Positions 23,036 through 59,933 are shown, numbered from the stretch's first letter. The stretch is DNA of 64,000 bases from Bacteriovoracaceae bacterium (GCA_048270185.1 JBLWTJ010000001.1:992001-1056000); one strand, 5' to 3'. Numbers and translations are program-made. Notes: generated by a model not told the origin, from the sequence alone.

Positions 23036-23050
23036 AAATTTGGAGAATAT

Positions 23051-23680: not shown

Positions 23681-23707
23681 TATTTTAAATGAGATTGAGG
23701 GAGAGAG

Positions 23708-24319
23708 ATGAGCGAAGTCTATATCATAGGAATTGCAGGTGGAAGTGGGTCTGGAAAGACTACTTTTGCGACAAGGTTACGTGCACGCCTAGGAGAAGAA
23801 CATTCTGAAGTTCTTGGCCAAGACTCATACTATATCGATCAATCAAATAAATTTGACCATGATGGAGGGGCCGTCAACTTTGACCACCCTTCATCATTAG
23901 AATTCTCACTCATGGCCTCTCACCTACTTGAGCTTAAAAATGGCAAAAGTATCGACGTACCTATTTACGACTTTGCTACACATAAGAGATTACCAAAGGC
24001 CGACAAATTAGCTCCGAAAAGAATTATTTTTGTTGATGGAATCCTTATCTTCTCTCAACCAGAGGTCGTTAATTGTCTCGATCATAAAATCTTTATCGAT
24101 TGTGAAGAAGAACTTCGCTACACGAGACGACTTGATCGTGATGTCAAAGAACGTGGACGTACTCCAGAAGGTGTTAGAGCTCAATTTCAGGCCCAAGTTA
24201 AGCCAATGCATGATGAATTTGTTGAGCCATCAAAATCCGTTGCTTGCGATATTGTCTGTGTTCATAATTTTGATGAAAAGCTTGATTTGTGGACCGAAAA
24301 GATAAAGAACCTCATTTAG
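23708..24319 (+). CDS. udk: Uridine kinase
   Basis: GIAGGSGSGKTT, NFDHP, RRLDRDVKERGR, FVEPSK. Confidence 0.95.
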   Translation: MSEVYIIGIAGGSGSGKTTFATRLRARLGEEHSEVLGQDSYYIDQSNKFDHDGGAVNFDHPSSLEFSLMASHLLELKNGKSIDVPIYDFATHKRLPKADKLAPKRIIFVDGILIFSQPEVVNCLDHKIFIDCEEELRYTRRLDRDVKERGRTPEGVRAQFQAQVKPMHDEFVEPSKSVACDIVCVHNFDEKLDLWTEKIKNLI

Positions 24320-41758: not shown

Positions 41759-42679
41759 TTAATAGATCGACTGCCCTGTATAAGTGGTAAAGAGTTCAAG
41801 GGCCTCAATTCCAGCAAGGGAGTTTCCTGTTTTATCGAGGCATGGTGACCAAGTTGAGATGGACATCTCATTTGGAATGACACCGACGATTCCCCCTCCG
41901 ACTCCCGACTTTGCAGGAATCCCCACGCGATAAGCGAAGTCACCAACAGAGTTATAAAGACCACATGTCATCATGATAGCGTTGAGTCTTTTATTCTGGC
42001 CCTTTGTTAGAATTTTCTTTCCAGTCCAAGGGTTTTGTCCATTGGAACTAAAGAGACGAAATGAACGAGCAAGATCAACACAGGTCATTTCAATAGAACA
42101 AATTGTCGAATAGATTTCAATAACTTTATCGACATCGTTTTTAATATTACCATAACTCTTCATAAAGTAAGCAAGAGCGAAATTACGATTTCCAGTAGCA
42201 AGCTCTGAATCCCTTACGGACTCATTGATATAAATATCTTGATTACCACTTAGCTCACGAACAAACTTTAAGACTTCATCAACTGGATCTTTATAGAGAT
42301 CAATTAGGGTATCGATTACAACAATGGCCCCTGCATTGATAAAAGGGTTACGTGGTATTCCCTCTTCATTTTCTAATAAGATAAGTGAATCAAATCGACT
42401 ACCAGATGGTTCAAGCCCTACTCGCTTCCATAGTTTTGAATCTAGTTTCTGATATGCCAGGACAAGAGTAAAAACTTTAGAAATCGATTGAATTGAAAAA
42501 GACTTTTGTGAATTGCCAATGATGTACTCATTCCCATCATTTGTACAAATCGACATGCCAAACTGATTAGGATCAATTTTTCCAAGCTCTGGAATATAAT
42601 CTGCTACTTTTCCCTTACCAATGAGAGGTGAAATTTCCGAATATATTCTTTCTAAAATTTGAGTGTACTTCTCTTCCAT
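41759..42679 (-). CDS. glsA: Glutaminase
   Basis: GKVADYIPEL, IQSISK, EPSG..F, NPFINAGAI, CGLYN, PAKSGVGGG. Confidence 0.96.
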   Translation of the reverse strand: MEEKYTQILERIYSEISPLIGKGKVADYIPELGKIDPNQFGMSICTNDGNEYIIGNSQKSFSIQSISKVFTLVLAYQKLDSKLWKRVGLEPSGSRFDSLILLENEEGIPRNPFINAGAIVVIDTLIDLYKDPVDEVLKFVRELSGNQDIYINESVRDSELATGNRNFALAYFMKSYGNIKNDVDKVIEIYSTICSIEMTCVDLARSFRLFSSNGQNPWTGKKILTKGQNKRLNAIMMTCGLYNSVGDFAYRVGIPAKSGVGGGIVGVIPNEMSISTWSPCLDKTGNSLAGIEALELFTTYTGQSIY

Positions 42680-42748
42680 AAAAAGAATATCTACTCTCAT
42701 AAGAGCAAACAGGCCATATGGCTTTCATAAAGTGAAAATATTTCATTC

Positions 42749-43462: not shown

Positions 43463-43492
43463 AAAGCGCCCTTTTCGATAAAGGACGCATTT
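43463..43492. terminator. Hairpin after the pgl fusion gene
   Basis: gcgccctttt-cgat-aaaggacgc imperfect inverted repeat. Confidence 0.5.
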
Positions 43493-43502: not shown

Positions 43503-45824
43503 TTATGCTACAGCAAGCTGAGGTTTAAGTTTTGCAATAACTTCAACAAGGTGCTTACAGACAAAATCCACTTCTTCTTGAGTCATCATTCCATGGAATG
43601 GTAATGCTAAGGTTCTTGTACTAATATCGATAGTATTCTCTAACCCTGAGACGTCAATATCAAAGTTTTTCATGAATGGTTGATCATGAATTGAATCAAA
43701 ATAAGCGCGAGCAGGGATACCTCTACTAGCGAGTTCATCGATTACGATATCGCGACTAACTCCACGTTCTAGTTTTACAACATAAACAAACCAGCTCATT
43801 GTTACACCCTCAGCAATAACTTGAAGACAAAGACCATCTTGACCTTTTAGGGCGTCATTATACATATGAGCAACACGTTCACGATCTTTTAATATTTGAT
43901 CGATTTTTCTTAACTGTGTAACTCCTAGAGATGCACTCAATTCATTCATGCGACAATTAAAGCCAAGAAATTCGTGCTTAAGCCATCCCCCCATGCTATT
44001 TCGCCCTTGATTTCTTAGGGCCCTAACATGATTTGCAACATCTTCGTCATCAGTAACAAGGATTCCTCCTTCTCCTGTTGTGATTTGCTTATTTGGATAG
44101 AATGCGAATGTTGATACATCTGCAAATGTACCTACCATCTTGTCACCAATTTTAGCACCTAATGCTTCACATGAATCATCAATAGTTTTAAGTCCATACT
44201 TTTTTGCTACTCGACAAATCTCTTGCCAATTAGCTGGATGGCCAAAAATATCTACCCCAAGAATAACCTTAGTTTTCTCAGTAATTTTAGATTCAATGTC
44301 TTTTGGACAAACACAGTGGGTTTCCTCTTCGATATCAGCAAAAACAGGAATTGCACCGGCATGTAAAATCACTGAAACAGAAGATACAAATGTATAAGAA
44401 GGAACAATTACTTCATCACCTTCTTTCACTCCTAAGGCGAGTAGCCCAAGGTATAAGGCTGAAGTTCCAGAGCTAACAGCAACTGCTTCTTTTACACCAA
44501 TATAATCTTGAATATTTCTTTCAAATTCTTCGACTTTTGGGCCTAGAGAAAGAACTCCACTTTCTAAAACAGAAACAACACCATCAATATCGTCTTGTCC
44601 AATAATAGGTTTGGCCATCGAGAGGTTGATATCCTCTCTTTTAAAATTTTTATTCACAGATAATCTCCTTGCAGGTTGACCAACGTAGGTCCCTGCTTCT
44701 TTAATATTTTTGATAACGCTAGAGTTAAGGCCAATAACAACATCACGGCAAACTTCGACAAGTGGTTTTACGACAGAGCCGGCTCCCACCATCACCATTT
44801 CGCCAATCTGAACACCTCCGCAAAGTGTTGCATTAGGACAAATATGAGCAAAATCCCCAACAACACAGTCATGTTCTACAATAGAACCAGTATTGATAAT
44901 GACATGATTTCCAATGACAGCATTTGGACCGATATAAGCACCGCTAAGAATAGCTGTTCCATGGCCAATAACTGCACTTTCATGAATAATTGCACTAGGA
45001 TGGATAATTGACTGCCAGTTAACCTTTAAGTCATTTGCCATCTTCTTTCTTATTGAATTGTTACCAATAGCAAGAAGCCCTCTCACTCCTTCGATATCTG
45101 TAGGTAGATAATCAGTGAGTTTAACATCGAGGTAAAAATCAACAGTTTGAATATTTTCTACTTTTTGATCGTAAATTGCATAAATATCAACCCCACTCTC
45201 TTGAGCTGCATATTGGACAGATAGAGAATGTCCTCCCCCTCCAAATAAATAGAAAGGATGATCAAATCTTTCCATCGTCTTTGATTTACTTGCATCAATT
45301 CCAACGGGCTTAATCATTTGCTTAATTGTCATTAGAATAATTTTGAGATCAAAGAGAAATGATTGCTTCTGAACGTATAACAGATCATATTTAAACTTAT
45401 TATTCCAAGTAAGTGAGTTACGACCTGAAACCTGTGCAAGACCAGTTAAACCAGGCTTAATATGGTGTCTTTTACTTTGCTCTTTAGAGTAGAAAGGTAA
45501 GTATTCTTTAAGAAGAGGTCTGGGTCCCACAACACTTAGATCACCAAATAAGATATTAAAAAATTCAGGTAACTCATCAAGGCTAAACTTTCTTAAAAAT
45601 TTTCCATATGTACCAATTCGTTCTGACTCATCTAATGAAGTATCAAGACTCATAGTCCTAAACTTTATCATTTTAAAGGTTTTACCTTTGTACCCGACTC
45701 TTTCTTGAACGAAGAAGATGGGTCTTCCTTGGATAACAAGACTAAGAAATGAAACCACCACTAAAACTGGTGAAACGAGAATAATTGAAAAGATTGAAAA
45801 AAGAATATCGAATGTTCTTTTCAT
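43503..45824 (-). CDS. Trifunctional PglC-like phosphoglycosyltransferase / PglD-like acetyltransferase / PglE-like DegT aminotransferase
   Basis: aa 1-187 KRTFD, KFRTM, SLDELP, VGPRP. aa ~190-388 GGGGH, NTGSIVEHD and hexapeptide repeats. aa ~398-773 SSGT, DSCEA, FYPNKQITTGEGG. Confidence 0.92.
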   Translation of the reverse strand: MKRTFDILFSIFSIILVSPVLVVVSFLSLVIQGRPIFFVQERVGYKGKTFKMIKFRTMSLDTSLDESERIGTYGKFLRKFSLDELPEFFNILFGDLSVVGPRPLLKEYLPFYSKEQSKRHHIKPGLTGLAQVSGRNSLTWNNKFKYDLLYVQKQSFLFDLKIILMTIKQMIKPVGIDASKSKTMERFDHPFYLFGGGGHSLSVQYAAQESGVDIYAIYDQKVENIQTVDFYLDVKLTDYLPTDIEGVRGLLAIGNNSIRKKMANDLKVNWQSIIHPSAIIHESAVIGHGTAILSGAYIGPNAVIGNHVIINTGSIVEHDCVVGDFAHICPNATLCGGVQIGEMVMVGAGSVVKPLVEVCRDVVIGLNSSVIKNIKEAGTYVGQPARRLSVNKNFKREDINLSMAKPIIGQDDIDGVVSVLESGVLSLGPKVEEFERNIQDYIGVKEAVAVSSGTSALYLGLLALGVKEGDEVIVPSYTFVSSVSVILHAGAIPVFADIEEETHCVCPKDIESKITEKTKVILGVDIFGHPANWQEICRVAKKYGLKTIDDSCEALGAKIGDKMVGTFADVSTFAFYPNKQITTGEGGILVTDDEDVANHVRALRNQGRNSMGGWLKHEFLGFNCRMNELSASLGVTQLRKIDQILKDRERVAHMYNDALKGQDGLCLQVIAEGVTMSWFVYVVKLERGVSRDIVIDELASRGIPARAYFDSIHDQPFMKNFDIDVSGLENTIDISTRTLALPFHGMMTQEEVDFVCKHLVEVIAKLKPQLAVA

Positions 45825-47683
45825 TACCCGACGTCCCCAAGTTGTACGACAAAGTCAGACTTAATATTTATGCTATTATTTGTCTCATTTATAAGATCTG
45901 ACATATCGTTAATACAACTAAGGTCATTCTCCATTGCCTTAACAATGATGGAATAGATACGTTTAAGGATTGCCTTACGAGAAAATTCATCATTAATAGT
46001 ATGTCCACAGTCTCCATTAGGTAGTGTTACAATATCTTTATGAGACGTTTGTAATTCTTCCCCAGTCAGATAAAGTTCTTCGAATAGCTTCTCACCTTTC
46101 TTCATACCGGTGAAAACGATATTTATACTCTCAATGCTTTTTCCCATAGCAAGAGCAAGTCTTTCTACAATATCGAGAATATAAATCGGATCTCCCATCT
46201 TTAAGACACAAAGGGATGTATTTTCAGAAACTGTTAAGCTATTCAACACAAGGCCAACCGCTTCAGGTATTGTCATAAAATAACGCTTCATTCTCTTATC
46301 AGTGATCGTCACTTTTTCATTATTCAAAATTTGTTCCATTACAATTGGAATCAGTGATCCACTAGAACCTAAAACATTACCAAATCTAACGGCGCGGTAT
46401 TCGCAGGTGCTATCTTTTGAGTAACAAGCGAGTAGGATTTCACACAGACGCTTAGTTGCCCCCATCACAGATGTAGGATTAACAGCTTTATCTGTAGAAA
46501 TTAAAATGAAACTCTTAACAGGAAACTCTGTTGAGAGATCGAGTAAATTCTTAGTACCTAAAACATTATTAAGAATTGCCGCCTTAGGGTTCGCTTCAAC
46601 AAGAGCAACATGTTTGTAAGCAGCTGCATGAAAAATATACTCTGGACAAGATTCTTTGAAAGAAGCATCTAGGGCTTCTTTATTTGTAATATCAATCATT
46701 AGAGAAGTAATTCTTACGTTACCAAAGTTGAATGATTTTATCTCATTTGTGATTTTGAATAGATTGTACTCACAGTTATCAATTAGAATAATCTCTTGGG
46801 GTTGCATTAAGAATAGCTGTCTCACTAGTTCAGCACCAATGCTACCTCCTGCTCCAGTTATACATACTTTTGAGCCATAAATTTTCTCAGAAAGAATAGT
46901 TAAGTCTGCTTCAATAGGCTCTCGCCCAAGTAATGTGTTTAACTCTATTTTATTAACCTTAAAATTTTGCCCAGAGAAAAGGTTTGCTTCAGAGATTGTG
47001 ACAGAAAGCTTATTACATACCTCTTTTATTTCTTTAGATTTATTAAAGTAATTACAATCAATAACAATTACTTCCTTAATTCTATTCTCAACAATTACTT
47101 TTTCCAATTCATCAATTCGACCCAAAACCTTAAACTGACCTTTAACAAGACTTACGTCATAGTCATCAACAAAGCCTACAATCGTGTGTGACTCACAATT
47201 AACATGACTTGCTAAGGATACTGCCTTCTTATCACTTCCTAGGATGATCGTTCTTGGACAATGTTGAGCATAAGATCGATCAAATAGTATCTTTCTCGTA
47301 ACTCGTGAAAAGATCATAATAACAAGAGAAACAGAGAAAATATTGAATAGTAACTGTTGATCGAGATTGAAAAATAAATATAAAGAGACACAAGTTGCAG
47401 TTAGAGCTAAGATCGATTTTAAAATACTTAGAGGTGTTGTATGCCTCCAAGAGTCAAGATTGCTTTTAGTTAGTAAACTAAAAAGTACAAAAAGTGATGA
47501 AAACTCAAGGTAGTAATATAGGAAAGATTCATTTCTTAAAAAGCCTAAGATAACTAAGTATGAATTAATTATTAATAAATCGAAAATAGGCCTAAATAAA
47601 AAATTAATAACCACTGAGAAAATCAACTCATACCCCACTAAAATTGTTAAATAAATTTTAGCCATTAGAGATGAAGTTCTCAA
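45824..47683 (-). CDS. Membrane-bound UDP-GlcNAc 4,6-dehydratase (PglF/CapD/WbpM family)
   Basis: N-terminal TMs, TGAGGSIG, HAAAYKHV, STDKA, MGATKR, RFGNVLGSSGS, GEKLFEEL. Confidence 0.93.
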   Translation of the reverse strand: MRTSSLMAKIYLTILVGYELIFSVVINFLFRPIFDLLIINSYLVILGFLRNESFLYYYLEFSSLFVLFSLLTKSNLDSWRHTTPLSILKSILALTATCVSLYLFFNLDQQLLFNIFSVSLVIMIFSRVTRKILFDRSYAQHCPRTIILGSDKKAVSLASHVNCESHTIVGFVDDYDVSLVKGQFKVLGRIDELEKVIVENRIKEVIVIDCNYFNKSKEIKEVCNKLSVTISEANLFSGQNFKVNKIELNTLLGREPIEADLTILSEKIYGSKVCITGAGGSIGAELVRQLFLMQPQEIILIDNCEYNLFKITNEIKSFNFGNVRITSLMIDITNKEALDASFKESCPEYIFHAAAYKHVALVEANPKAAILNNVLGTKNLLDLSTEFPVKSFILISTDKAVNPTSVMGATKRLCEILLACYSKDSTCEYRAVRFGNVLGSSGSLIPIVMEQILNNEKVTITDKRMKRYFMTIPEAVGLVLNSLTVSENTSLCVLKMGDPIYILDIVERLALAMGKSIESINIVFTGMKKGEKLFEELYLTGEELQTSHKDIVTLPNGDCGHTINDEFSRKAILKRIYSIIVKAMENDLSCINDMSDLINETNNSINIKSDFVVQLGDVG

Positions 47684-47739: not shown

Positions 47740-48951
47740 ATGAAGAAGATATTTCTAAATAAAGGCCTACCTATTTTTAACACAATAGGAATTATTGCCT
47801 ACTCGCTATCTCAGTGGCTTATTATTAAGTTAATTAGTAACAAGTACCCGACTGGGGCCCTAGGGGACTACGCCCTTTCTCTTTCTTATTTAGCACCTCT
47901 AACATTATTCTTCTGTTTCTCATTAAGAAATTTTTTTAATAGTCATCATGAACAGATTACTATTTCAGATATATTCACACAGAGAGTCTTATCAATACTC
48001 GCCTATTTCCTATCTTCCTTGATAGCGCTATTAGTATTTATCCCCAATGTTGATAAGGTGGTCTTTATCATACTCATGCTAATACGAAGTGGTGACCTAC
48101 TTTCTGACCTTGCTTACACAATCAAGCAAAAGAAAAAAGATATAAGATATATCGGAACGAGTCTTTCATTAAAAAGCATGTTCATTATGATTTTATGTGT
48201 TCTTGCATATAGTAAAGCCGATTTAACAATAAGCTTCTTCTTAGTTGGAATTCTAAGTATTACAATTATCTTCTCAATTATTGATCTAAGTAATTCGATA
48301 GAAATATTTAAGTTTAAGACCGACGCCCTAAAGAAAATAACGATCCTAACAGTACCTTTGGCGCTCGCTTCTCTAGTAAACTCAGTAAATGCAAATGTTC
48401 CTCGATACTTTCTAGACTTTTTCTTTGATAAGACTAGTGTTGCTATATTTTCAACTTTCTTCTTTTTCTACTCTTCAATAATAGTCATTACTAATTCCTT
48501 CATCCAAGTATCTTTAAATAGACTATCCCTATCTCTTGTAAACCGTTATGAGGTAAACAAGATGATAAAATCTTACTTTCTCTTTGCGCTATTAACTTCT
48601 GCAACATTTGTATTATTCAATGAACTCACAGGGGAATATATTTATAAATTAATATTTGGAATAAAATATACGGAGTATGTTCATTATTTACGCTACTTGA
48701 ATATAATTATTCCACAAGCAATTCTAATTATACTTATCAATTACTTCGTAATAGCGCTAAAGGTATACAAAACGAGCTTTATCATTACTTCAATAACATT
48801 AATCGTTCACTTCGTTGCTGCTTATTTATTAATTAAAGACACAGAGATCACAGGAAGCTTCAATGCATTTATTATTTCTCAAATCTTTTATATTATACTT
48901 AACCTCATCTTAATTACTAATAAAGTTAGAGGGATAAGATATGAATCTTGA
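47740..48951 (+). CDS. wzx: Wzx-type oligosaccharide flippase
   Basis: About 12 TM helices, SQW..., G.Y.L, N.PRY; locus context. Confidence 0.8.
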   Translation: MKKIFLNKGLPIFNTIGIIAYSLSQWLIIKLISNKYPTGALGDYALSLSYLAPLTLFFCFSLRNFFNSHHEQITISDIFTQRVLSILAYFLSSLIALLVFIPNVDKVVFIILMLIRSGDLLSDLAYTIKQKKKDIRYIGTSLSLKSMFIMILCVLAYSKADLTISFFLVGILSITIIFSIIDLSNSIEIFKFKTDALKKITILTVPLALASLVNSVNANVPRYFLDFFFDKTSVAIFSTFFFFYSSIIVITNSFIQVSLNRLSLSLVNRYEVNKMIKSYFLFALLTSATFVLFNELTGEYIYKLIFGIKYTEYVHYLRYLNIIIPQAILIILINYFVIALKVYKTSFIITSITLIVHFVAAYLLIKDTEITGSFNAFIISQIFYIILNLILITNKVRGIRYES

Positions 48952-50143
48952 TTTGATAGAATTCAACTTCTACCTCTCTCTAATAATCATCATCCTTAAA
49001 TTAATCTTGAAAGGATGGAAGGATCATTTAACTTATTTTATCATTTTCTACTTCTTCTTTTCGATGGGCCCTGTTTTAAATATTTTAATCGGAAATGGTA
49101 TCTATTTTGGAACTCCAAAAGATTATATTCATATAGCGACAACAAACTTCCTATATGCAATAGCAACAATGTCCATCCTATCAGTCATTCTCAAGCCTAG
49201 AAATACAGTCATCGAAGAGGTAAAAGAGAAATTCCCCCTCTTAAACTGGGCGTTTATCTTTTTTATAGTCTTAGCAAGCTTTAATATCTTAAAACTAACT
49301 TCGATTGGATTAAGTATTGATAAAGTGACAAAAATTTCAATTATTGGAAACTCAATTCACTACAGTTATCTACTCCTTCAATTATTCCTAGTATCCTTCT
49401 ACTACCTATGTCGAAGCGGAAGTACAAAAAAACTCTATTTAATAAATTTTCTCACCTATATCGCCTATTGTTTAGTTACAGGTGAACGTGACTTTATATT
49501 CCCTTTATTTTCAATTGTGGGACACTTACTTATTCATCAAAGGACTAGTTTGAAGAAAAAGATCCTCCTAACATCATCTCTATCTTTATTAGGTATTGGT
49601 GGAACATTGATCTTTATCATGAGGGATGTAACACAAAAAACGACAAACTATGTCGAATCTTTCTTAAATCAAGGATCACTGCTTTTCGTAAATGCATTCA
49701 CAGCAAAACTGATTGATATTAAGTATAATTTTTTCTATGGAGAAACATACTTACAAAGTATTCTTAGTCTTCTGCCTAGTTTTATCTATAAGTCCTCATA
49801 TAATAATCTTGCATGGCTTAAAAATAATTATGCCCCAGGGGGAGATTCAGGATATGGTTTTGGACTTGATGCCGAAGGGTATATGAACTTTGGGTACTTT
49901 GGTGTTATTGCAACATTTGTTCTTATTGTTTTAGTACAAAGATTTTGTAACTATAATATTAATAAAGGAAATTTCTTTAAGTATTACAGTGTCTTTTTCC
50001 ACGGATTCACGATGTATTGTTTTAGGAATGACTCATTAGCATTTTTAAAAGGTAATCTTTACGCAGTTATATTCTATTTCATAATTATTCAGGCCAATAA
50101 TTTCATAACAAAACATACAGGCCAAGTAGGACCTCATGAGTAA
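48941..50143 (+). CDS. wzy: Wzy-type polysaccharide polymerase
   Basis: Multi-TM, G.R, YGETY, GFG..AEGYMNFG motifs. Confidence 0.8.
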   Translation: MNLDLIEFNFYLSLIIIILKLILKGWKDHLTYFIIFYFFFSMGPVLNILIGNGIYFGTPKDYIHIATTNFLYAIATMSILSVILKPRNTVIEEVKEKFPLLNWAFIFFIVLASFNILKLTSIGLSIDKVTKISIIGNSIHYSYLLLQLFLVSFYYLCRSGSTKKLYLINFLTYIAYCLVTGERDFIFPLFSIVGHLLIHQRTSLKKKILLTSSLSLLGIGGTLIFIMRDVTQKTTNYVESFLNQGSLLFVNAFTAKLIDIKYNFFYGETYLQSILSLLPSFIYKSSYNNLAWLKNNYAPGGDSGYGFGLDAEGYMNFGYFGVIATFVLIVLVQRFCNYNINKGNFFKYYSVFFHGFTMYCFRNDSLAFLKGNLYAVIFYFIIIQANNFITKHTGQVGPHE

Positions 50144-51371
50144 GCCTTTAAGAGTACTCCAAATTGTCAAAACTACAGATGGTGCAAGCTGGGCCCTTAA
50201 CCAAGTAAAATGTCTAATAAGTAATGGAATTGAAGTTCACATAGTTTTAAATAGCGAATCTGGTAAATTTTACGAAGACTGGCGAAACAGTGGTGCCACA
50301 ATACACATATTAGATTGTAAGCTTAGCCCTGTGTCTCCACTTAAAACGCTTAAATCCATTTACTCACTTAGAAAGATAATAAAGAAAGTCTCACCAGCTA
50401 TTATTCACAGTCACTTTTTTATTAATACTATCCAAATGCGACTGGCAACTTTTGGTTTAAATTTAGAGCGTGTATTTCAGGTACCTGGACCTCTTCACCT
50501 TGAACATATCATCTTTCGATATCTTGATTTATTAACAGCTAGAAAGAACGATCAATGGATCGCTTCATCAAAGCATATAAAAAACTTATACCTAAGAAAT
50601 GGGGTCGATGAAAGACGAGTTCACCTAAGCTATTATGGCAATGATTATAGTAATTTCAATAAAGTCGATAAAGCAAAAGAAGATGATACGATTCGTACAA
50701 AATATAATTTCACAAAAGATGATATTATCATAGGTAATGTCTGCTATATCTATCCTCCCAAAAGATTTATAGGTCAGAAAGTTGGCCTTAAAAATCATGA
50801 AGTGATGATTAAAGCAATTGAAATTGCAAGAAGAACAAACCCTAGGATAAAAGGACTATTTATAGGCGGAGAATGGGGAAACTCAACTGCTTATGAAGAT
50901 AGCCTCAGAGAATCAATCCCAATATCAGAAAAAGAAAATATTATCATTACAGGTAAAATACCTCCGAATGAAGCAGCAAAAGGCTGGATGAATATTGATT
51001 ATACAATTCATTTACCACTCTCTGAAAGCTGTGGAGGAGTAATTGAACCCCTACTCTCCCTTCGGCCAGTTATTACATGCCAAACAGGTGGTATCCCTGA
51101 AATTATCTTCGATAAAGAAACAGGCTATTTGACAAGTAGAGATAACCCGCAAGATGTTGCTAACAAGATTCTTGAGGTTATTAGTGATGAAGACAATGCC
51201 AACAAGTATACTTTAAAAGGAAAGAAGCTTGTCTTAGATATGTTTGATATTAGAAGAACTGCAAAAGAGATAGTGGAAATATATAAAAAAATAATTAATC
51301 TTGATAACTCATATGAAGAATACTCTTCAAAAGAATATCTAGATAGGATGAAATGTAATGAAAAGATCTGA
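50136..51371 (+). CDS. GT4 glycosyltransferase
   Basis: IIHSH, K.H, SESCGGVIE, GGIPEII...TG. Confidence 0.88.
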   Translation: MSKPLRVLQIVKTTDGASWALNQVKCLISNGIEVHIVLNSESGKFYEDWRNSGATIHILDCKLSPVSPLKTLKSIYSLRKIIKKVSPAIIHSHFFINTIQMRLATFGLNLERVFQVPGPLHLEHIIFRYLDLLTARKNDQWIASSKHIKNLYLRNGVDERRVHLSYYGNDYSNFNKVDKAKEDDTIRTKYNFTKDDIIIGNVCYIYPPKRFIGQKVGLKNHEVMIKAIEIARRTNPRIKGLFIGGEWGNSTAYEDSLRESIPISEKENIIITGKIPPNEAAKGWMNIDYTIHLPLSESCGGVIEPLLSLRPVITCQTGGIPEIIFDKETGYLTSRDNPQDVANKILEVISDEDNANKYTLKGKKLVLDMFDIRRTAKEIVEIYKKIINLDNSYEEYSSKEYLDRMKCNEKI

Positions 51372-52749
51372 TTTTTTGAAATTCATTGGAGTAGGACTTG
51401 CTCTTCCAGCACTTGGAAGATCCCAACCAAAGCAAAGTCAGGCAAACAATAAGAGAATTGACGATATCACAAATTATGGTGCAATTAGTGACGGAAAAAC
51501 TGATGTAACAAGTGCGATAAGAGACTGTCTAAAAGCTAACTCTAGTGCCTTTATCCCTATGACTGCAAAAGGTTTTATTGCAGGGGGAATCATTTTAAAA
51601 GAATCCAAAATTTACGGTTCTGGTGTGCTTATTCGATCAAAGAAAGCAGATTATACAATCATGACGAAAGGAAAGAATTGTATTGTTGAAGGTCTAGTAT
51701 TTAAGTCAGCAAACGGTAATTATAACAATGGTGTTTCAGATATTAATATAGGAGAAAGTAGTCATAGCGTCCGAATTCATAGCTGTAAGTTCGAAAGTGA
51801 CCACTATTGTGCTATCTCTGCAGATAAGAATGCTGAAAAAGACCTAAAGTTAACATATAAGTCTCCAGTGAAAGAAATTATTATTTCTAAAAATATTTTT
51901 GCTGGTAATTATTCAAGGGCACTCTACTTACATAGCGCCGAGGAACTTATCATTTCTGATAATATAATCAAACAGACTCTTTTTGATGGGATTCGATTAA
52001 GACAAAGAATTAAAAAGTGTATTATTTCAAAGAATATATTTAATAATATTGGAACAAAGAAACATACAGACTCACAAGATGCTATTGATACGTACTGGAG
52101 CGGAGAAGAACTCATCATTAGTGATAATATCATTAAAAACTGCTCTAAAAATGCAATCGAAGTTAAAGGAGTATCCCCTGACAGTACAGGTGCAACTGGT
52201 AAAGTTATTATAACTGGAAATGAAATATTAAATACTTCCTATAGTGCGATTCATATCTCTTCTGGCGCTAGTAAGTCAATTACAGTAAAAGACTTCATCA
52301 TTGCAAATAATATTATTAAGTACTCTGGTACCGCAAAAGTGAGCAAAGGTAATGCTGCCATTTTCATTAGACATGGAGTTGAGAATCTTAATATAAACTC
52401 AAATATAATTTCTTCAAATAACTCACGTGGAATCTTCTTGGCCAATATAAAAAAAGATAATGAGATAGTGAAAAATGTTACGATAACGGCCAATAATCTT
52501 ATCGATAATGGTAATGAAAATGAAGGTTATGCAATCCTAAGCTCAGGTGTTGAAAATTGTAATATCTACGCAAATAATATCGATAATAAGAATGGACAAC
52601 AAAAAGTAGCAATCGCAATCACAGACCAGAAAGGAAGTGAAAGCACGGCCATCATTAATGGAAATATAATAAGATCAAATAAAAAAGAATCAATTCTATA
52701 TAATAAAAAGAATAAAAAAATATTGGTTAACAATAATTTGATTAATTAA
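51358..52749 (+). CDS. Exported right-handed beta-helix (pectin-lyase fold) protein
   Basis: Tat-like leader MKRSDFLK, YGAISDGKTDVTSAI, repeated IISDNII/IISKNIF coils. Confidence 0.8.
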   Translation: MKRSDFLKFIGVGLALPALGRSQPKQSQANNKRIDDITNYGAISDGKTDVTSAIRDCLKANSSAFIPMTAKGFIAGGIILKESKIYGSGVLIRSKKADYTIMTKGKNCIVEGLVFKSANGNYNNGVSDINIGESSHSVRIHSCKFESDHYCAISADKNAEKDLKLTYKSPVKEIIISKNIFAGNYSRALYLHSAEELIISDNIIKQTLFDGIRLRQRIKKCIISKNIFNNIGTKKHTDSQDAIDTYWSGEELIISDNIIKNCSKNAIEVKGVSPDSTGATGKVIITGNEILNTSYSAIHISSGASKSITVKDFIIANNIIKYSGTAKVSKGNAAIFIRHGVENLNINSNIISSNNSRGIFLANIKKDNEIVKNVTITANNLIDNGNENEGYAILSSGVENCNIYANNIDNKNGQQKVAIAITDQKGSESTAIINGNIIRSNKKESILYNKKNKKILVNNNLIN

Positions 52750-53258
52750 TCAATTTTCTTATAAATTAAAACAGAACCGAGGGCCGTAACTAGAATTCCT
52801 AACACAGATGTATACCATGCCCTATTCTCATAAAAACGTTCTTTTCTAAGATAGACAACATCACCTGGCTGAAGTTGGAAATTGTGGCTATTAAAGTCTC
52901 CACCACTACTCAGATCAAACTCAATAGTCTTTAGGTCGCGTCCCGCCTTACGTGTAATTTTAACATCTGTTAAGTTAGCATCACCGGTTGCTCCGCCGGC
53001 CAAAGATAGGCCACTAATTAAGCTTGTCCCCTTTGGCACAAAGTGAAGACCAGCTGATTTAACCTCACCCCAGAAATTAGTCGGTATAAGTACTTCATTC
53101 TTCACTGAATTTGAAAAGTAAAGTGAACCAGACTTCTTCTCTAGACCTTTGACTTCTGTTGGCAGAACAATTGAATTTAGGTCAATTTTATTGGCCGCAT
53201 GTGCTAAAGGACCTAGGAATAAATTTGCTACCGTTAAGATAATAGTGATCAACTTCAT
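52746..53258 (-). CDS. Short SLBB-domain polysaccharide export (Wza-like) protein
   Basis: WGEVKSAG, LSLAGG, LQPGDVVY and C-terminal helix; only 170 aa. Confidence 0.75.
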   Translation of the reverse strand: MKLITIILTVANLFLGPLAHAANKIDLNSIVLPTEVKGLEKKSGSLYFSNSVKNEVLIPTNFWGEVKSAGLHFVPKGTSLISGLSLAGGATGDANLTDVKITRKAGRDLKTIEFDLSSGGDFNSHNFQLQPGDVVYLRKERFYENRAWYTSVLGILVTALGSVLIYKKID

Positions 53259-53286
53259 GAAAATATCTTAATCAAACAAATAAAGC

Positions 53287-54765
53287 TTAGCAAGAAACTT
53301 TTGCTATTTCAGGGGCCATCCCAAGGTCTTTCGCATCATGATAAAAGACTTTAATTTCATCATGAGAGTAGATTCGGTCATCAATAAGATAACAAGCGAA
53401 ACAAGAAAGAATAAGCATGAAGACGGAGACTAAAGCACTCAATAATATCAACAACTTAGTAGTGAACTTCTTATGATCTTCAATTTTTGGATTAAGTATG
53501 TTGAATGTGAGGTAGTTTTGAATTGAGTTCAAATTATTCTGTGCCTCTCTAAGCTTTGACCTTAGATCAACAATTGTAGTCTTCAAAGGATTTAGTTGAT
53601 CATTTGTGATCGTATTAAGATTCTTATCCTTTAATAATATATCTCTTTGGATTTTATTCTCTTTAATCTGAAGAGTCAGTTTATCAATTAAAACAGTGAG
53701 TGTTTTCTTCTTCTGGATTAGCTCAGGAATTTTCTCAAGCTCAATGCTTTTACTCTTCTCATCATCTGTAATTGCTGCATCACTTACATTTAGTTTTTTA
53801 AGTTCATTTGCTAAAGAGTATCTCTGTTTCTTGAGATCATTAATAAGAGATGAGTTTTCTTTGTAAGAACCAGACTTAAGTAATTCGATATTTTTAGATA
53901 GATCAATAATTTGTTGTTCAATCTCCCCTTTCTTACGAATAAGAGATCGGTCTGAACCTGAGAAGTTAATTTTCTTCATATTCTTGTAGAATTTAAGATC
54001 TGAGTTTACAGAAATCAATAACTCACTATTCTTAGCAAGACTTTTTTCCTGCTCTCTTATGACCTCATCTAAATCAGCAACTCTTTCATCAGCACCAACT
54101 TTAATCACACTATGATTATCAACAAGTTGTTTCTCGTGTAATTCTAGTTCTGATTGAAGTTTTTCAATTCTTTCCTTTGCTAAGATAAAATTTGAATTAT
54201 ACTTTGTACTTTTTAAATTCTTAACAATTGCATCTTGAATAATTAAAGTCGTAAACTTATTAGTACCTCTAGTGTATAAAACATAACCTCCGTAGCGAGG
54301 GCTCTGTTTAACACTATAGCTTTCATGGATATTCTCAGCAATGAATCTTACGATACATTCTTTATTATATGAGCAGTATTTATAAATCGATTCAAGACTA
54401 TGCTTCTCACCTTCTTCATTTTGAATAATCAGTTCCTTAATATCATCTGTCGCCATTAATTCCTGGGCCACACTCAACTTAAAGTCCCATCTTTCAACAA
54501 GAGAACGATAGGTTTTAATTTCGTCAATCTTACTTAGGCCAATGATCTCAGCAAATCTTGACTCCTTGCTTGAGTTCTCGAAAATAGAGTTGAAATGTAT
54601 TTCTCTGACATAATTCTTATCTTGGTTAATATAGAAAGTAAGTAAAGCACCAACGCTCAGTAGAATACTCAATAAATTTATTGGCCAGTATCTACGCATG
54701 AGAGTGAAAAAAAGAGAGAAGTTGATAACAGAATCATTATTTAAGAGTAGTCTAAGCTTTCTCAC
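53287..54765 (-). CDS. Polysaccharide co-polymerase (Wzc/GumC-like TM and coiled-coil module)
   Basis: Two TM helices flanking a long coiled coil; DDRIYSHDEI...LG.. P tail. Confidence 0.75.
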   Translation of the reverse strand: MRKLRLLLNNDSVINFSLFFTLMRRYWPINLLSILLSVGALLTFYINQDKNYVREIHFNSIFENSSKESRFAEIIGLSKIDEIKTYRSLVERWDFKLSVAQELMATDDIKELIIQNEEGEKHSLESIYKYCSYNKECIVRFIAENIHESYSVKQSPRYGGYVLYTRGTNKFTTLIIQDAIVKNLKSTKYNSNFILAKERIEKLQSELELHEKQLVDNHSVIKVGADERVADLDEVIREQEKSLAKNSELLISVNSDLKFYKNMKKINFSGSDRSLIRKKGEIEQQIIDLSKNIELLKSGSYKENSSLINDLKKQRYSLANELKKLNVSDAAITDDEKSKSIELEKIPELIQKKKTLTVLIDKLTLQIKENKIQRDILLKDKNLNTITNDQLNPLKTTIVDLRSKLREAQNNLNSIQNYLTFNILNPKIEDHKKFTTKLLILLSALVSVFMLILSCFACYLIDDRIYSHDEIKVFYHDAKDLGMAPEIAKVSC

Positions 54766-55478
54766 TTGTTACCTTCTTTTACATATACTATTCCACCAAG
54801 CTCAACCCCTAAGGACTTCAAGTAATTTGTATTCTTTTTAATTAAGCTTAATCTTGTTTTACGCTCTCTTACAATAAAGTCGCAATGTGAGGAGAATAAA
54901 AGAGGAGTTCTTGCATCAACTCCTAGGTCTTTTAATTCTTTATCGTCTAGCATAAATATAATTTTATCAAAGGCAAACGTTATTTGATTCATAACACTTG
55001 CTAACTCACTTGTATGATGAACAAATTGCGAAAGAAAATAGCTATAATTCAAAGTAGAAATATTATCCGAAAGTTTTTTAAGAGCTAACGATTTCTTATT
55101 AACATTATTAAGAGGTAGTATAGATTCATTAATTGAAATATCTTTAAATCCATCCCCTATATCACTATAAGATATAACCAAGACTTTCTTATTAAAACAA
55201 ACATCAATACAGCTCATAATTGAAAGAACAATATCTTCAAGCTTAGATTTATCAATTAAACCAACGATTGTTGAAACTTTGCTTTGAGGAGTAGTGTCAC
55301 TAATAACTTTAGACATACTTAATAGGTCTTTGCGATTTTTAATTCGATAGAAAATCGAGCTTAGGTCATACTTTTTATCAAGAGAATCTTGGATAATATT
55401 CTCATTTAAATGAGAGTACTCACCTCGATTATGGCTATTCTCTAAGACTAAGATTTTATTCTTCAAACTTCTTGTCAT
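54762..55478 (-). CDS. Degenerate BY-kinase-like (CapB/Wzc kinase fold) protein
   Basis: C-terminal FIVRERKTR....L..LGVELGGIV matches BY-kinase ends; Walker A GK(S/T) not found. ATG at 55478 after GAGG. Confidence 0.55.
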   Translation of the reverse strand: MTRSLKNKILVLENSHNRGEYSHLNENIIQDSLDKKYDLSSIFYRIKNRKDLLSMSKVISDTTPQSKVSTIVGLIDKSKLEDIVLSIMSCIDVCFNKKVLVISYSDIGDGFKDISINESILPLNNVNKKSLALKKLSDNISTLNYSYFLSQFVHHTSELASVMNQITFAFDKIIFMLDDKELKDLGVDARTPLLFSSHCDFIVRERKTRLSLIKKNTNYLKSLGVELGGIVYVKEGNK

Positions 55479-55647
55479 GTGACCTCTTGACTTAACAAAA
55501 ATCAAATTTCAATTCATTATACATAATATTTATTAACAAAGCATTAAGATGGTAGTTAATTCCCCCTCCTACAAGGCCTCCAGGAAAAACTGAGGAACAA
55601 ATTGCCATGGGGCGAAAATTAAATTTTATTGTGATTAAATAACGAAG

Positions 55648-56091
55648 ATGAATGAAATAAGTTTACCGAAAAAACAGATAGATATAGATTTCACTAGGTT
55701 TACATCTAGTCTTGGACTATTCATATCAAATAATTCATCTGATCTAGTTCAGTGTTTCTTTAGTGGATACAAGAAGACGTCAAAGCCCGAGTATTCTAAG
55801 AATAAGGTTTACTCGATCTATGAAATTACTCCCCTAGTTAATACTCTTGCTATAACAAATAACATTATCGATTTAAATATTGATAGTCGCTTAACTGAAA
55901 ACGAAGTCTCTATTTCAATGGCCATCGTGCTGGACTGGCAACCACAGCTTAAAAAGTTTGTCACAATTACAATTGATGACGTTCATATGCTCCTTGATGA
56001 AGAACTCAATTATATAAAAACGAAAAAGTTTAAAGAAGATATTACTAAGTTCTACCATCGCATGCTTTATACTAGAGGTACGAATGAATAA
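55648..56091 (+). CDS. Hypothetical protein
   Basis: 147-aa ORF overlapping the PilZ gene start. Confidence 0.6.
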   Translation: MNEISLPKKQIDIDFTRFTSSLGLFISNNSSDLVQCFFSGYKKTSKPEYSKNKVYSIYEITPLVNTLAITNNIIDLNIDSRLTENEVSISMAIVLDWQPQLKKFVTITIDDVHMLLDEELNYIKTKKFKEDITKFYHRMLYTRGTNE

Positions 56092-56449
56092 GCACAGCAG
56101 AGACTTTCAACGCTATTCATTTGAGTCTTATAATATTGCCGCATATACAATTATGGAAAATAAAAAGTTACCGGTTAAGCTAATTAATATTGGACTTGGT
56201 GGCTGTCTCATAAAAGTTTCTTCTGACATGAATATTGATAATTTATGTATTATCCTAGCTGAGAAACAAATCAAAATGGATTTGAGTCAGAGGTGGAGCA
56301 GAAAAGATGATAAATATAACTATATTGGTTTTAAGATAAAATTTAACGATTATTATAATTTCAACCTCTGGAAGAACTTAGTTCACTCTACTCAGAGAAT
56401 TGAACTTAAGCATAGTAATAATAAAGCGCCAAGAGACATTAGTCTATAA
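56084..56449 (+). CDS. PilZ-domain protein
   Basis: RDFQR (RxxxR), NIGLGG (D/NxSxxG variant), RW, IGFK. Confidence 0.75.
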   Translation: MNKHSRDFQRYSFESYNIAAYTIMENKKLPVKLINIGLGGCLIKVSSDMNIDNLCIILAEKQIKMDLSQRWSRKDDKYNYIGFKIKFNDYYNFNLWKNLVHSTQRIELKHSNNKAPRDISL

Positions 56450-56462
56450 GCCTGAGGTATTC

Positions 56463-57746
56463 ATGAATAAAAGCGTATGTGTAATAGGACTTGGCTATGT
56501 CGGTCTTCCTGTAGCCTATAATTTCGCTAAAAAGTACCAAACGATAGGTATCGATATTTCAAGCAAACGAGTCGATGAGTTAAATAATCATCTCGATCGT
56601 ACAAGAGAGATCACGACAGAAGAACTAAGAGAGCTTAGCATGAATTTTTCAACAAAGATTGAAGATGCGGCTGACTTTAATTTCTTCATTGTAACCGTAC
56701 CTACTCCAATTGATAATTTTAAAACTCCAGATCTTACTCCTGTAATAAGCGCAACAAATGACGTCGCAAAAGTACTAAAGAAAGGAGATACTGTCGTCTA
56801 CGAATCGACAGTCTACCCCGGTGTAACGGAAGATATCTGTGCCAAAATCCTTGAAGAGAGAACTGGTTTAAAATTTGGTGTCGATTTCTTTATGGGTTAT
56901 TCACCAGAAAGAATTAATCCAGGAGATAAAGAACATACGTTCACAAAGATCACAAAAGTCGTCTCGGGCTGTTGTCCAGAGAGCTTAGAAGATATTGCTA
57001 CAATGTATGCAAGTGTTATAGAAGCTGATGTCTTTAGAGCAACATCAATAAAAGTAGCAGAAGCATCAAAGGTTATTGAAAATATCCAACGGGATGTAAA
57101 TATCGGCTTAATTAATGAGCTGGCTCTAATTTTTGATAAGCTTAATATTAATACAACTGATGTTCTTGAAGCATCAGGTACAAAGTGGAACTTTCTAAAC
57201 TTTAGGCCAGGGCTTGTTGGTGGTCATTGTATCGGTGTTGATCCCTACTACCTTTCTTACAAGTCACAACAAGTTGGTATCATTCCACAAATCATAAATG
57301 CGGGAAGAAGAGTTAACGATAGTATTGCCAATCATATTTCGCAAAAGGCCGTAAAGCTTCTCATTCAAAATAATGTTAAAGTTAAAGATGCTAATATTGC
57401 TGTACTTGGGCTCACATTCAAAGAGAATTGTCCGGATCTTAGAAACTCAAAAGTTGAAGATATAATTAGAGATCTTGAAGAATATTCAACAAATACCCTA
57501 CTTGTCGACCCTCATTGTGACAAAGAAGAAGTTGAATCCAAGTACAATAAGGAAATTCAAGAATTTCATCAATTAGAAAATATCGACTTACTCTTAATTA
57601 ACGTGGCCCATAAAGAATTCACAGAAATTTCAGAAGAAGAACTGATTAAAGTCTTTTCTGGAAAGCCACCAATTATTATCGATGTTAAAAATATTTGTCC
57701 AACATCAATTAAAAAGAATAAAGAATATACTTACTGGAGCCTTTAA
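56463..57746 (+). CDS. UDP-N-acetylhexosamine 6-dehydrogenase (WbpO/TviB family)
   Basis: GLGYVGLP, VPTP, ESTVYPG, SPERINPG, GGHCIGVDPYY, TFKENCPDLRNS. Confidence 0.94.
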   Translation: MNKSVCVIGLGYVGLPVAYNFAKKYQTIGIDISSKRVDELNNHLDRTREITTEELRELSMNFSTKIEDAADFNFFIVTVPTPIDNFKTPDLTPVISATNDVAKVLKKGDTVVYESTVYPGVTEDICAKILEERTGLKFGVDFFMGYSPERINPGDKEHTFTKITKVVSGCCPESLEDIATMYASVIEADVFRATSIKVAEASKVIENIQRDVNIGLINELALIFDKLNINTTDVLEASGTKWNFLNFRPGLVGGHCIGVDPYYLSYKSQQVGIIPQIINAGRRVNDSIANHISQKAVKLLIQNNVKVKDANIAVLGLTFKENCPDLRNSKVEDIIRDLEEYSTNTLLVDPHCDKEEVESKYNKEIQEFHQLENIDLLLINVAHKEFTEISEEELIKVFSGKPPIIIDVKNICPTSIKKNKEYTYWSL

Positions 57747-58780
57747 TGGATCAGAGCTTACAAGAGCTATCAAATAAACTAATAAAAGAGCCTCGTAAAT
57801 GGCTTGTAACAGGTGCTGCTGGTTTCATCGGTTCTAACCTTTGCGAATTTTTACTAAATAATAATCAAATCGTTGTCGGTCTTGATAACTTCTCTAATGG
57901 ATCAAAGGCAAATATAGAAGACATAAAATCAAAGTGTCATAATCATGTTGAAAACTTCCAATTTCATGAAGGTGATATTAGAGACTTCAATACATGCTTA
58001 GAGCTGACAAAGGGAGTGGATCACATTCTCCATCAAGCAGCACTTGGCTCAGTCCCCCGCTCGATTAAATCTCCGGACTTAAGTCATCAATCAAATGTTG
58101 ACGGGACCTTTAATATGCTAAATGCTGCTCGAATGGCCAACGTTAAGTCATTTGTTTATGCCTCTAGTAGTTCGGTCTATGGAGATAATAACCTAGACTT
58201 CAAACTTGAAAGTAATATTGGGACCCAATTATCACCTTATGCCGTCACTAAGCATGTATGTGAATTATATGGAAGAGTGTTCAACTTAACATACGGACTA
58301 CCTACAATTGGTATCCGTTACTTTAATGTCTTTGGAAGAAGACAGGATCCAAATGGGGCCTATGCTGCTGTTATACCAAAGTGGATTGAAAAGGCCTTAA
58401 CAGGGCAAGACTTAGATATATATGGAGATGGTGAAACAAGTCGTGACTTCTGCTATATCGACAATGTTATCCAAATGAATATTAAAGCATCATTAAATAC
58501 AGACCCTAGTAATTTTGGCCAAATTTTTAATTGTGCATTAAGTAAGACCACTTCTCTTAATACTCTTTCAAAGCTAATCCTCGAAAACATCAAGGAGCAA
58601 TCAGGTAAAGAGCTTAACAGTAAAATCAATTACCAAGACTTTAGAAAGGGTGACATTAGAAACTCTCAAGCAAATATTACTAAGAGTATCGAAAATCTAG
58701 GCTATCAACCAGAAATCTTTATTGAAGAAGGTATCAAAAGAACAGTGCAATACTATCTTTCGAAAAAAGAGAATTTATAA
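57746..58780 (+). CDS. UDP-GlcNAc(A) 4-epimerase (WbpP/TviC family)
   Basis: WLVTGAAGFIGSNL, HQAALGSVPRS, SPYAVTK, YAAVIPKW. Confidence 0.94.
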   Translation: MDQSLQELSNKLIKEPRKWLVTGAAGFIGSNLCEFLLNNNQIVVGLDNFSNGSKANIEDIKSKCHNHVENFQFHEGDIRDFNTCLELTKGVDHILHQAALGSVPRSIKSPDLSHQSNVDGTFNMLNAARMANVKSFVYASSSSVYGDNNLDFKLESNIGTQLSPYAVTKHVCELYGRVFNLTYGLPTIGIRYFNVFGRRQDPNGAYAAVIPKWIEKALTGQDLDIYGDGETSRDFCYIDNVIQMNIKASLNTDPSNFGQIFNCALSKTTSLNTLSKLILENIKEQSGKELNSKINYQDFRKGDIRNSQANITKSIENLGYQPEIFIEEGIKRTVQYYLSKKENL

Positions 58781-58781
58781 A

Positions 58782-59933
58782 GTGAAAAAAGTTAATATCA
58801 CGCTAGACTTTAGGTTTGCTCGTTATAATGGCAAGATTTGGACAAAGTCATCATTTGATTACAAATTCTGGCAAAGATATTTAATGACATTTTCACATGT
58901 GAATATCATTGCACGTGTTGAAGATGTGAATTCTCAAGAAGGGCTAAAGCCTGTCACAGGTGACAATGTAACTTTCACAGAAGTTCCCTACTTCCTTGGA
59001 CCAAAGGATTATTTCTTTAAAAGAAGTGCCATCCGTAAGATGTTAAAAGGCATCATTAATCCAAATGAAGCCTATATTATGCGTGTACCATCAACAATTG
59101 CTGATGTTCTACAACCACTTCTAGTAAATAACCATATTGAATACGGAATTGAGCTCGTAGGAAATCCTTACGACACATTTAAGAAAGGTTCTTACCAGCA
59201 CCCTCTTCGTCTCTTCTTTCAATATTGGCTGACAAAGAATGTAAAAAAACAAATCTTTCAGGCCAAGAGTAGCTCATATGTAACGAAGACTTACCTACAA
59301 GAGCTCTACCCTAACAAAAATCCAAAAAATCAATTCAGTTATTCTTCGATATCTCTACTTCCAGAGCATATTTCTCATAGCAGAGAAGATTTTAACATGA
59401 ATAAGAAGCTACTCTTTATTGGCTCACTTGAATACCTTGTGAAATCACCAGACACGCTCATAAAAGCCTTTCACAAGGCCCTACAATCAAATGACAAACT
59501 CACCCTAACCATTGCAGGCGATGGGAAAGAAAGAAGCGGTCTTGAAGAGTTAGTGAAGAAGCTTGGTATCGAAAACAAAGTCACATTTCTAGGCTTTCTA
59601 AATGGTGGAGACGCTGTCAGAGAGCAACTTGACCAACACGATATCTACATTCTGACTTCAATTTCTGAAGGCCTTCCGCGAAGTATGGTCGAGGCCATGG
59701 CAAGAGGATTACCATGTATTGGTAGTACGATTGGCGGAATAAAAGAATTACTAGAAGAAGATGATTTAGTTGATCCACAAGATGTACAAGGACTAAGTCA
59801 AAAAATAATTGAGTTCTGTCGTGACGATGAGCAACTAAAAGAAAAATCAAAGAGAAACTTAGAGGTCTCTAAGTCATACTTGAATGAATTTCTGGATCAA
59901 CAAAGAAAGTCTTTTTATCAGACACTGCTATAA
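58782..59933 (+). CDS. GT4 glycosyltransferase
   Basis: SEGLPRSMVEAMARGLP, GGIKEL. GTG start just after the upstream stop. Confidence 0.9.
   Translation: MKKVNITLDFRFARYNGKIWTKSSFDYKFWQRYLMTFSHVNIIARVEDVNSQEGLKPVTGDNVTFTEVPYFLGPKDYFFKRSAIRKMLKGIINPNEAYIMRVPSTIADVLQPLLVNNHIEYGIELVGNPYDTFKKGSYQHPLRLFFQYWLTKNVKKQIFQAKSSSYVTKTYLQELYPNKNPKNQFSYSSISLLPEHISHSREDFNMNKKLLFIGSLEYLVKSPDTLIKAFHKALQSNDKLTLTIAGDGKERSGLEELVKKLGIENKVTFLGFLNGGDAVREQLDQHDIYILTSISEGLPRSMVEAMARGLPCIGSTIGGIKELLEEDDLVDPQDVQGLSQKIIEFCRDDEQLKEKSKRNLEVSKSYLNEFLDQQRKSFYQTLL

Follow-up and report, generated by a model that had tools for sequence, protein, structure and literature searches.

Can three enzymes that act in turn on a sugar nucleotide be carried by a single membrane-bound polypeptide, and if so, which lipid-linked sugar would it make? 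The question is raised by a 64,000-nucleotide stretch of DNA from a Bacteriovoracaceae bacterium (GCA_048270185.1, JBLWTJ010000001.1:992001-1056000), referred to below, as a whole, as the window. One open reading frame (ORF) of the window joins a phosphoglycosyl transferase (PGT), an N-acetyltransferase (AT) and a sugar aminotransferase (AMT), and it directly follows the gene of a PglF-like UDP-GlcNAc 4,6-dehydratase. A preliminary description of this DNA had read the pair as the whole bacillosamine pathway in two polypeptides. To judge from sequence, it is likely that the two genes make the first, lipid-bound sugar of a Wzy-dependent surface polysaccharide by the steps proposed below, and that this sugar is diacetylbacillosamine (diNAcBac).

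Three enzyme domains on one chain

The fusion is encoded by a single ORF of 773 codons, which starts with ATG and contains no internal stop. Reading of the ORF, together with Pfam and NCBIfam matches, bears out the uninterrupted chain and the order PGT, AT, AMT given in the preliminary description (Table 1). The Pfam family Bac_transf covers residues 2-172 (E 6.8e-58; 195.6 bits, cut-off 27; match over the full 179-position profile), PglD_N covers residues 192-266 (30.2 bits against a cut-off of 23.4), Hexapep/LbH repeats extend over residues 264-397 approximately and DegT_DnrJ_EryC1 occupies residues 408-759 (E 1.9e-110, 370 bits). In addition, the NCBIfam model TIGR03570 (NeuD/PglB/VioB) scores 182.4 bits and passes its curated cut-off of 160.8.

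The best solved relative of the PGT domain is PglC of C. concisus (8g1n, E 4.1e-55), with residues 1-188 of the query aligned to chain residues 10-202. The sole strongly hydrophobic stretch of the fusion, residues 13-38, contains an S18-P19 break aligned to the S-P of PglC, which we take to be a feature of the re-entrant membrane helix; at least 90% of the 23 sequences compared share P19. D83-E84 and P101-R102-P103 align with the dyad and the PRP of the same protein, motifs named here as in the excerpts of PMC10186338 used throughout, to whose numbering that of the 8g1n chain corresponds with an offset of +4, as derived from the position of the dyad.

In the AT domain, E317-H318 is aligned to the EH of C. 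jejuni PglD, and the AlphaFold2 model displays regular beta-helix strands over residues 270-388. The AMT domain carries its pyridoxal phosphate (PLP) lysine, K579, within an FYPNK stretch and its pyridine-binding aspartate at D550. Conservation was counted in an alignment of 29 triple fusions, which are 34-84% identical to the query. All of them keep D83, E84, P101-R102-P103, Y108, W140, H318, D550 and K579, while position 317 is a glutamate in 12 and an aspartate in 17. The Asp-Glu dyad, the acetyltransferase EH and the PLP lysine had been described as intact, and they are; D83, E84, H318 and K579 are invariant.

The AlphaFold2 monomer model, built on the same alignment, has a mean predicted local distance difference test (pLDDT) score of 87.8, and each of the three domains is modelled with high pLDDT. 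Low confidence is limited to residues 178-180, the linker at 391-396 and the tail at 770-773. PGT and AT adjoin essentially without a linker, and AT is connected to AMT by a short linker of low confidence. The predicted template modelling (pTM) score of the monomer is 0.52, so this model does not define how the domains are placed relative to one another.

The upstream partner matches the Pfam family Polysacc_synt_2 over residues 273-552 (E 1.2e-93, 314 bits), and its top relative in the Protein Data Bank (PDB) is C. jejuni PglF/WlaL (5bju, E 1.9e-74). Its 'istdkav' and 'mgatkr' align with 'istdkav' and 'mgctkr' of PglF, and these STDK and MGxTK stretches are presumably the catalytic stretches of a PglF-like enzyme. 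Several hydrophobic segments lie within residues 8-129. An in-frame ATG at 47665, six codons into the ORF, is an alternative start. The 1-nt overlap between the two genes reported earlier is confirmed as a TAATG stop/start, from which the dehydratase and the fusion are judged to be translationally coupled. Because a terminator-like hairpin lies 3′ of the fusion stop, the pair looks like a two-gene operon; the consensus scan that located this hairpin returned 4 sites against 2.5 expected in shuffled sequences.

Table 1. Position of the fusion, its domains and the neighbouring features in the window
Feature	Position	Strand	Basis
Fusion ORF, 773 codons	43503..45824	(-)	ORF reading, Pfam, NCBIfam
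PglC-like small monotopic PGT domain (re-entrant helix, DE dyad, PRP, aromatic box), fusion residues 1-190	45255..45824	(-)	
PglD/NeuD/PglB/VioB-type AT domain (PglD_N and left-handed beta-helix), fusion residues 191-400	44625..45254	(-)	
DegT/DnrJ/EryC1-type PLP sugar AMT domain (tail ...LAVA), fusion residues 401-773	43506..44624	(-)	
PglF-like membrane-anchored UDP-GlcNAc 4,6-dehydratase, 619 aa from TTG	45824..47683	(-)	Pfam, PDB match
TAATG stop/start overlap, dehydratase to fusion (...GGG TAA TG AAA...)	45822..45826	(-)	Sequence read
Terminator-like hairpin, 9-bp stem with 5 G-C and T-rich tail, 15 nt past the fusion stop	43466..43488	(-)	Consensus scan
Divergent surface-polysaccharide genes	47740..59933	(+), SLBB gene (-)	Pfam, NCBIfam

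Predicted pathway and product

The chemical steps and the identities of the substrates are those we infer from homology. The PglF-like nature of the membrane-anchored dehydratase suggests that it would convert UDP-GlcNAc into UDP-4-keto-6-deoxy-GlcNAc. The C-terminal DegT domain would then aminate C4 of this intermediate, with PLP on K579, and the central PglD-type domain would N-acetylate the C4 amine with acetyl-CoA, using H318 as the base. Finally, the N-terminal PglC-type domain, predicted to sit in the inner leaflet by its re-entrant helix, would move the phospho-sugar to undecaprenyl phosphate via D83-E84, with release of uridine monophosphate (UMP). The chemistry would run from the C- to the N-terminus, AMT to AT to PGT, that is, towards the membrane, and the product would be undecaprenyl diphosphate (Und-PP)-linked 2,4-diacetamido-2,4,6-trideoxyhexose.

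The configuration at C4 decides which hexose this is. The gluco product, diNAcBac, is the one favoured by three features of the PGT domain. The aromatic box is complete (5/5), since Y108, Y112, W140, F144 and F187 correspond to Y118, Y122, W150, F154 and F197 of PglC; E107/R186 is the counterpart of the E117-K196 salt bridge; and the C-terminal extension is present, the alignment reaching PglC chain residue 202 of 205. According to the excerpts of PMC10186338, the aromatic box and the long C-terminal extension are tied to PGTs using UDP-diNAcBac and are degenerate or truncated elsewhere.

Several observations weigh against this assignment. The same excerpts report that diNAcBac PGTs conserve a GLLLP mobile loop together with the aromatic box. 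This loop is missing from the query PGT, which has a 5-residue gap relative to PglC, and it is absent across the clade of the query; it is PglC-like in the second clade of triple fusions defined below (e.g., 'DGNLLPD' in the protein labelled P0052). The AMT domain is only distantly related to PglE (1o61, E 7e-35) and to the Psychrobacter Pcryo enzyme (7l7x, 5e-37). Its leading sequence matches are 7b0m (E 1.3e-74), an uncharacterised sugar transaminase from an oil-field metagenome, and 7b0d, a transaminase of Archaeoglobus veneficus, and GDP-perosamine synthase (3bn1, 4e-63) comes third among the solved relatives. Nothing relevant to the PDB entries 7B0M and 7B0D was found in the literature. 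A Foldseek search with the AMT fold retrieved DegT structures with TM(target) values of 0.86-0.93, including 7b0m at 0.91, and GDP-perosamine synthase ranked second by fold. The AMT domain also falls below the NCBIfam equivalog cut-offs for PseC (298.9 against 423.5), LegC and ArnB. As for the AT domain, its closest solved relatives are PerB (4ea7, E 3.7e-26) and PglD (2npo, E 6.7e-26), so that it resembles the first about as much as the second.

Part of this evidence leaves the galacto epimer as a live rival, rather unlikely in our view but to be taken seriously. The same chain, setting an axial amine at C4, would yield Und-PP-2,4-diacetamido-2,4,6-trideoxygalactose, an N-acetylated FucNAc4N/AAT-type sugar. 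The distance of the AMT domain from PglE and from Pcryo_0638-type enzymes and the lack of the GLLLP motif both speak for this epimer. In the excerpts of PMC11626204, small PGTs using UDP-FucNAc4N cluster apart and WcfR makes an axial amine from the same keto intermediate, which also counts in its favour. However, the complete aromatic box and the long C-terminal extension are diNAcBac features in the excerpts of PMC10186338, and the known FucNAc4N pathways transfer the free-amine sugar (PMC11626204, excerpts), whereas an AT domain is fused into the chain here. Hence, of the proposal that the whole bacillosamine pathway is held in two polypeptides, the content and order of the domains, the intact motifs and the coupling to a PglF-type dehydratase stand, but the gluco configuration is favoured over the C4-epimeric one rather than certain, the AMT domain being far from PglE and GLLLP missing.

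A second alternative takes the AT and AMT domains as a GDP-perosamine/N-acetylperosamine module (Per/PerB-like) unrelated to the adjoining dehydratase. The ranks of GDP-perosamine synthase, third by sequence and second by fold for the AMT domain, and of PerB, which heads the solved matches of the AT domain, would agree with such a module. Nevertheless, the scanned ORFs of the window include no GDP-mannose 4,6-dehydratase (Gmd), the lone nearby short-chain dehydrogenase/reductase (SDR) scoring 71 bits for Gmd against a cut-off of 415, and the translationally coupled partner is PglF-like, which together make the GDP-perosamine reading unlikely. The PerB and PglD scores of the AT domain are practically equal, and the fused PGT is PglC-like, monotopic PGTs (monoPGTs) being described as UDP-sugar enzymes in the excerpts of PMC11626204. 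Altogether, we regard a perosamine module as very improbable, and diNAcBac is retained as the most likely product of the pair.

Recurrence, origin and possible assembly of the fusion

The PGT-AT-AMT architecture is real, uncommon and clearly not unique. Domain hidden Markov models (HMMs) made from alignment A1 were run on 265 collected proteins. The three domains are found in this order in 33 of them, the query included, all drawn from the best 120 clusters at 90% identity, so that the order is common to the query and 32 other clusters. Four of the 33 carry an extra N-terminal family 4 glycosyltransferase (GT4) and form GT4-PGT-AT-AMT chains of 1190-1200 aa (P0035, P0038, P0046 and P0050), while three or four others (716-754 aa) begin within the PGT domain, perhaps because the gene call is incomplete. 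The remaining architectures are PGT-AMT (25), PGT-AT (12, about 400 aa), AT-AMT (11), AMT-AMT (15) and AMT alone (149). A fusion of a PglF-type dehydratase with an AMT also exists (P0076, 1079 aa). No chain longer than 1353 aa with all modules was found, a weak negative; the search gave a single match, with the PGT only. Tandem AMT-AMT fusions of 775-785 aa (P0022, P0031-P0034, P0039, P0044 and others) nearly match the query in length; hence length alone is no guide to architecture.

The exhaustive search covered 1.84 billion representatives at 50% identity and gave 155,093 matches at E <= 0.001; triple fusions account for 4 of the 150 best of these representatives (P0017, P0021, P0035 and P0043). 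The preliminary description had left open how rare the fusion is. It is uncommon by the last count, yet it recurs in 33 of the 265 collected proteins, which fall into two deep lineages and include four-domain forms. This recurrence goes some way towards an architecture that is already common, a circumstance that the preliminary description had itself listed as counting against its proposal. In the ESM Atlas, one cluster of at least 50 members has an 813-aa representative with DegT and Bac_transf (score 0.98), which is mentioned as a lead only. No paper describing a PGT-acetyltransferase-aminotransferase chain was found in the literature, although a prior mention may exist, for example in O'Toole et al. 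2021 (PNAS; a monoPGT sequence-similarity network with a fusion catalogue), which reportedly includes fusions with sugar-modifying enzymes.

The closest relative of the query is a protein of the same length, 773 aa, with 82% identity over 100% of the query, from a 3.15-Mb contig of the isolate genome of Halobacteriovorax sp. BALOs_7 (NCBI name), which makes a related predatory bacterium the probable source of the window. Other named sources of triple fusions are a Bacteriovoracaceae and a Planctomycetia metagenome-assembled genome (MAG). In all 33 fusions, 0-8 residues separate PGT from AT and 2-31 residues separate AT from AMT. An error of assembly or sequencing behind the long ORF, or a domain that survives only as an inactive remnant, is hardly credible: nothing was found in support, the sole opening being that many relatives come from metagenome assemblies, whereas the order and similar junction lengths recur in independent assemblies, the orthologue from the isolate and the 32 other clusters exclude the artefactual junctions that had been raised as a concern, and the domains each fold with high pLDDT and keep their catalytic residues in all 29 aligned fusions.

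A scan of genome contigs with AMT-domain patterns listed at least 80 loci. It is not a census, and no Halobacteriovorax locus is among the matches listed; triple-fusion loci among these matches number 0 of 80. At three of the loci, in Caloramator (L009), Caldilineales (L044) and Gemmatimonadota (L058), unfused PGT, AT and AMT ORFs abut or overlap in the same order and are followed by an ORF of 520-734 aa, which may be PglF-type, as judged by its size and position. These operons share with the query the colinear arrangement of PGT, AT and AMT. They differ in that stop codons separate the genes and in that the dehydratase gene comes first in the window. Such colinear separate genes suggest gene fusion within an operon. 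In addition, the AMT domain starts with a methionine followed by an alanine in 20 of the 29 aligned fusions, M403-A404 in the query (window 44613-44618, minus strand), which looks like a relic start codon of a formerly separate AMT gene. These observations point to an origin of the fusion protein from adjacent pglC-pglD-pglE-type genes.

To follow this history, a FastTree tree, midpoint-rooted, was built from 127 AMT domains, namely those of every fused form other than AMT-AMT, of the first 30 among the 149 standalone enzymes and of 24 locus ORFs with PGT or AT ORFs nearby. The group that contains the query has 19 triple fusions (support 94; not starred). Another nine form a second clade with the four GT-containing chains (support 100, starred). 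Branches of standalone enzymes lie between this second clade and that of the query (98, starred), and the starred branches force at least four label changes. The tree would be explained either by at least two independent fusions or by one fusion followed by several fissions.

The assembly of such a chain raises a geometric question. PglD-type enzymes form trimers and DegT enzymes dimers, and in both the subunits share active sites; hence 3-fold and 2-fold interfaces would be present on one chain. The hexamer or larger lattice with substrate channelling that had been proposed is a reasonable geometric inference and speculative.

A further feature of the chain lies at its C-terminus, which reads ...KPQLAVA in the query (window 43506-43526, minus strand). 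In the Ala tails surveyed across P0003-P0053, alanine is the last residue of 31 of the 33 triple fusions, 20 of which have Ala-Ala, in both deep clades, and the residues preceding the tail are not conserved. Such ends are found in 11 of the 149 standalone AMTs (Ala-Ala in 2), in 13 of 80 standalone AMT ORFs of the loci (Ala-Ala in 3) and in 8 of the 25 PGT-AMT fusions. Fisher's test for 31/33 against 11/149 gives p of about 2e-23, a value uncorrected for relatedness. Unfused sister AMTs at three loci (L003, L004 and L006) end in -AA or -EA, so the signal may be partly lineage-specific. A non-polar C-terminal tail recalls the ssrA-type and LpxC-type protease degrons, and the Ala tail of the fusions may serve as a degron or as a docking tail. 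The most elaborate picture would be a self-organising membrane machine, in which trimeric AT hubs are held at the membrane by three PGTs across a near-zero linker, AMT dimers cross-link them into a hexamer or 2D lattice, the UDP-sugar is passed from tip to membrane and the Ala/Ala-Ala tail sets the abundance of the protein as an ssrA-like degron for ClpXP or FtsH. We consider this picture as a whole unlikely.

Genomic context and relation to known systems

The genes divergent from the operon comprise an unknown 403-aa ORF, a Wzy-type polymerase, a GT4, a beta-helix protein, an SLBB export protein on the minus strand, a TviB-like UDP-GlcNAc 6-dehydrogenase, a TviC-like 4-epimerase and a second GT4. 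Together, the TviB- and TviC-like enzymes would supply a UDP-2-acetamido uronic acid. A flippase or a chain-length regulator is expected in a Wzy-type cluster. The ORFs at 47740-48951 (plus strand; 403 aa), 53287-54765 (minus strand; 492 aa) and 54762-55505 (minus strand; 247 aa) matched no Pfam or NCBIfam family. Among the ORFs scanned in the window, no PglB-type oligosaccharyltransferase was seen. On the other side, a glutaminase gene (41759-42700, minus strand) lies two genes downstream of the fusion, past the hairpin and a gene encoding a CxxCxxCC-domain protein. DegT enzymes usually take their amino group from L-glutamate, which glutaminase produces; the proximity of its gene to the fusion is probably a coincidence.

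Two other loci of the window were noted in passing. A run of genes at 19065-24319 (plus strand) encodes an aldehyde dehydrogenase, a GTP_CH_N/GTP-cyclohydrolase-II-like protein, a DUF1688 protein, a uracil phosphoribosyltransferase and a uridine kinase, a set which we take to resemble that of the yeast URC-type uracil catabolism. At 12220-14412 (plus strand), a 730-aa protein combines an N-terminal OsmC-like domain with a YcaO cyclodehydratase and YcaO_C.

If the fusion is active as predicted, one polypeptide and one dehydratase would turn UDP-GlcNAc and undecaprenyl phosphate into a lipid-linked diacetamido-trideoxyhexose primer, and the pair would make a compact tool for glycoengineering. 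The chain also offers a natural test case for channelling brought about by fusing sequential sugar-nucleotide enzymes to a membrane PGT, as well as for the coexistence of 3-fold and 2-fold oligomerising domains on one chain. More generally, that these modules have been fused again and again, in many combinations, attests to a strong pressure for co-localising the pathway at the membrane, and dozens of such fusions are already present in sequence databases under generic names.

Compared with the Campylobacter Pgl system, in which PglF, PglE, PglD and PglC are separate proteins, the four enzyme families are held in common, and among solved structures PglF (5bju) and PglC (8g1n) come closest to the dehydratase and the PGT domain, while PglD ranks near the top for the AT domain. 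The two systems differ in that three of the four enzymes lie on one chain in the query, in that its AMT is only distantly PglE-like and in that its genomic context is a Wzy-type polysaccharide cluster. The nearest known design is PglB of N. gonorrhoeae, listed as a UDP-diNAcBac enzyme in Table 2 of PMC10186338 (excerpts), to which the preliminary description had rightly compared the fusion: both begin with a PglC-type PGT that runs directly into a PglD-type acetyltransferase, and the query adds a C-terminal DegT aminotransferase as a third enzyme. The word 'aminotransferase' does not occur in PMC12776464, nor is this enzyme among the fused domains named in the excerpts used. The BiPGT (bifunctional monoPGT) class, which goes back to the Imperiali/Allen papers, is defined in the excerpts of PMC11626204 and PMC10186338 as a monoPGT core with one or more further catalytic domains; the query belongs to it, having by Pfam two such domains C-terminal to its PGT core. 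The fusion extends this established bifunctional monoPGT class of the PglB type, an incremental step when taken as a single genome observation, by placing a third enzyme on the chain.

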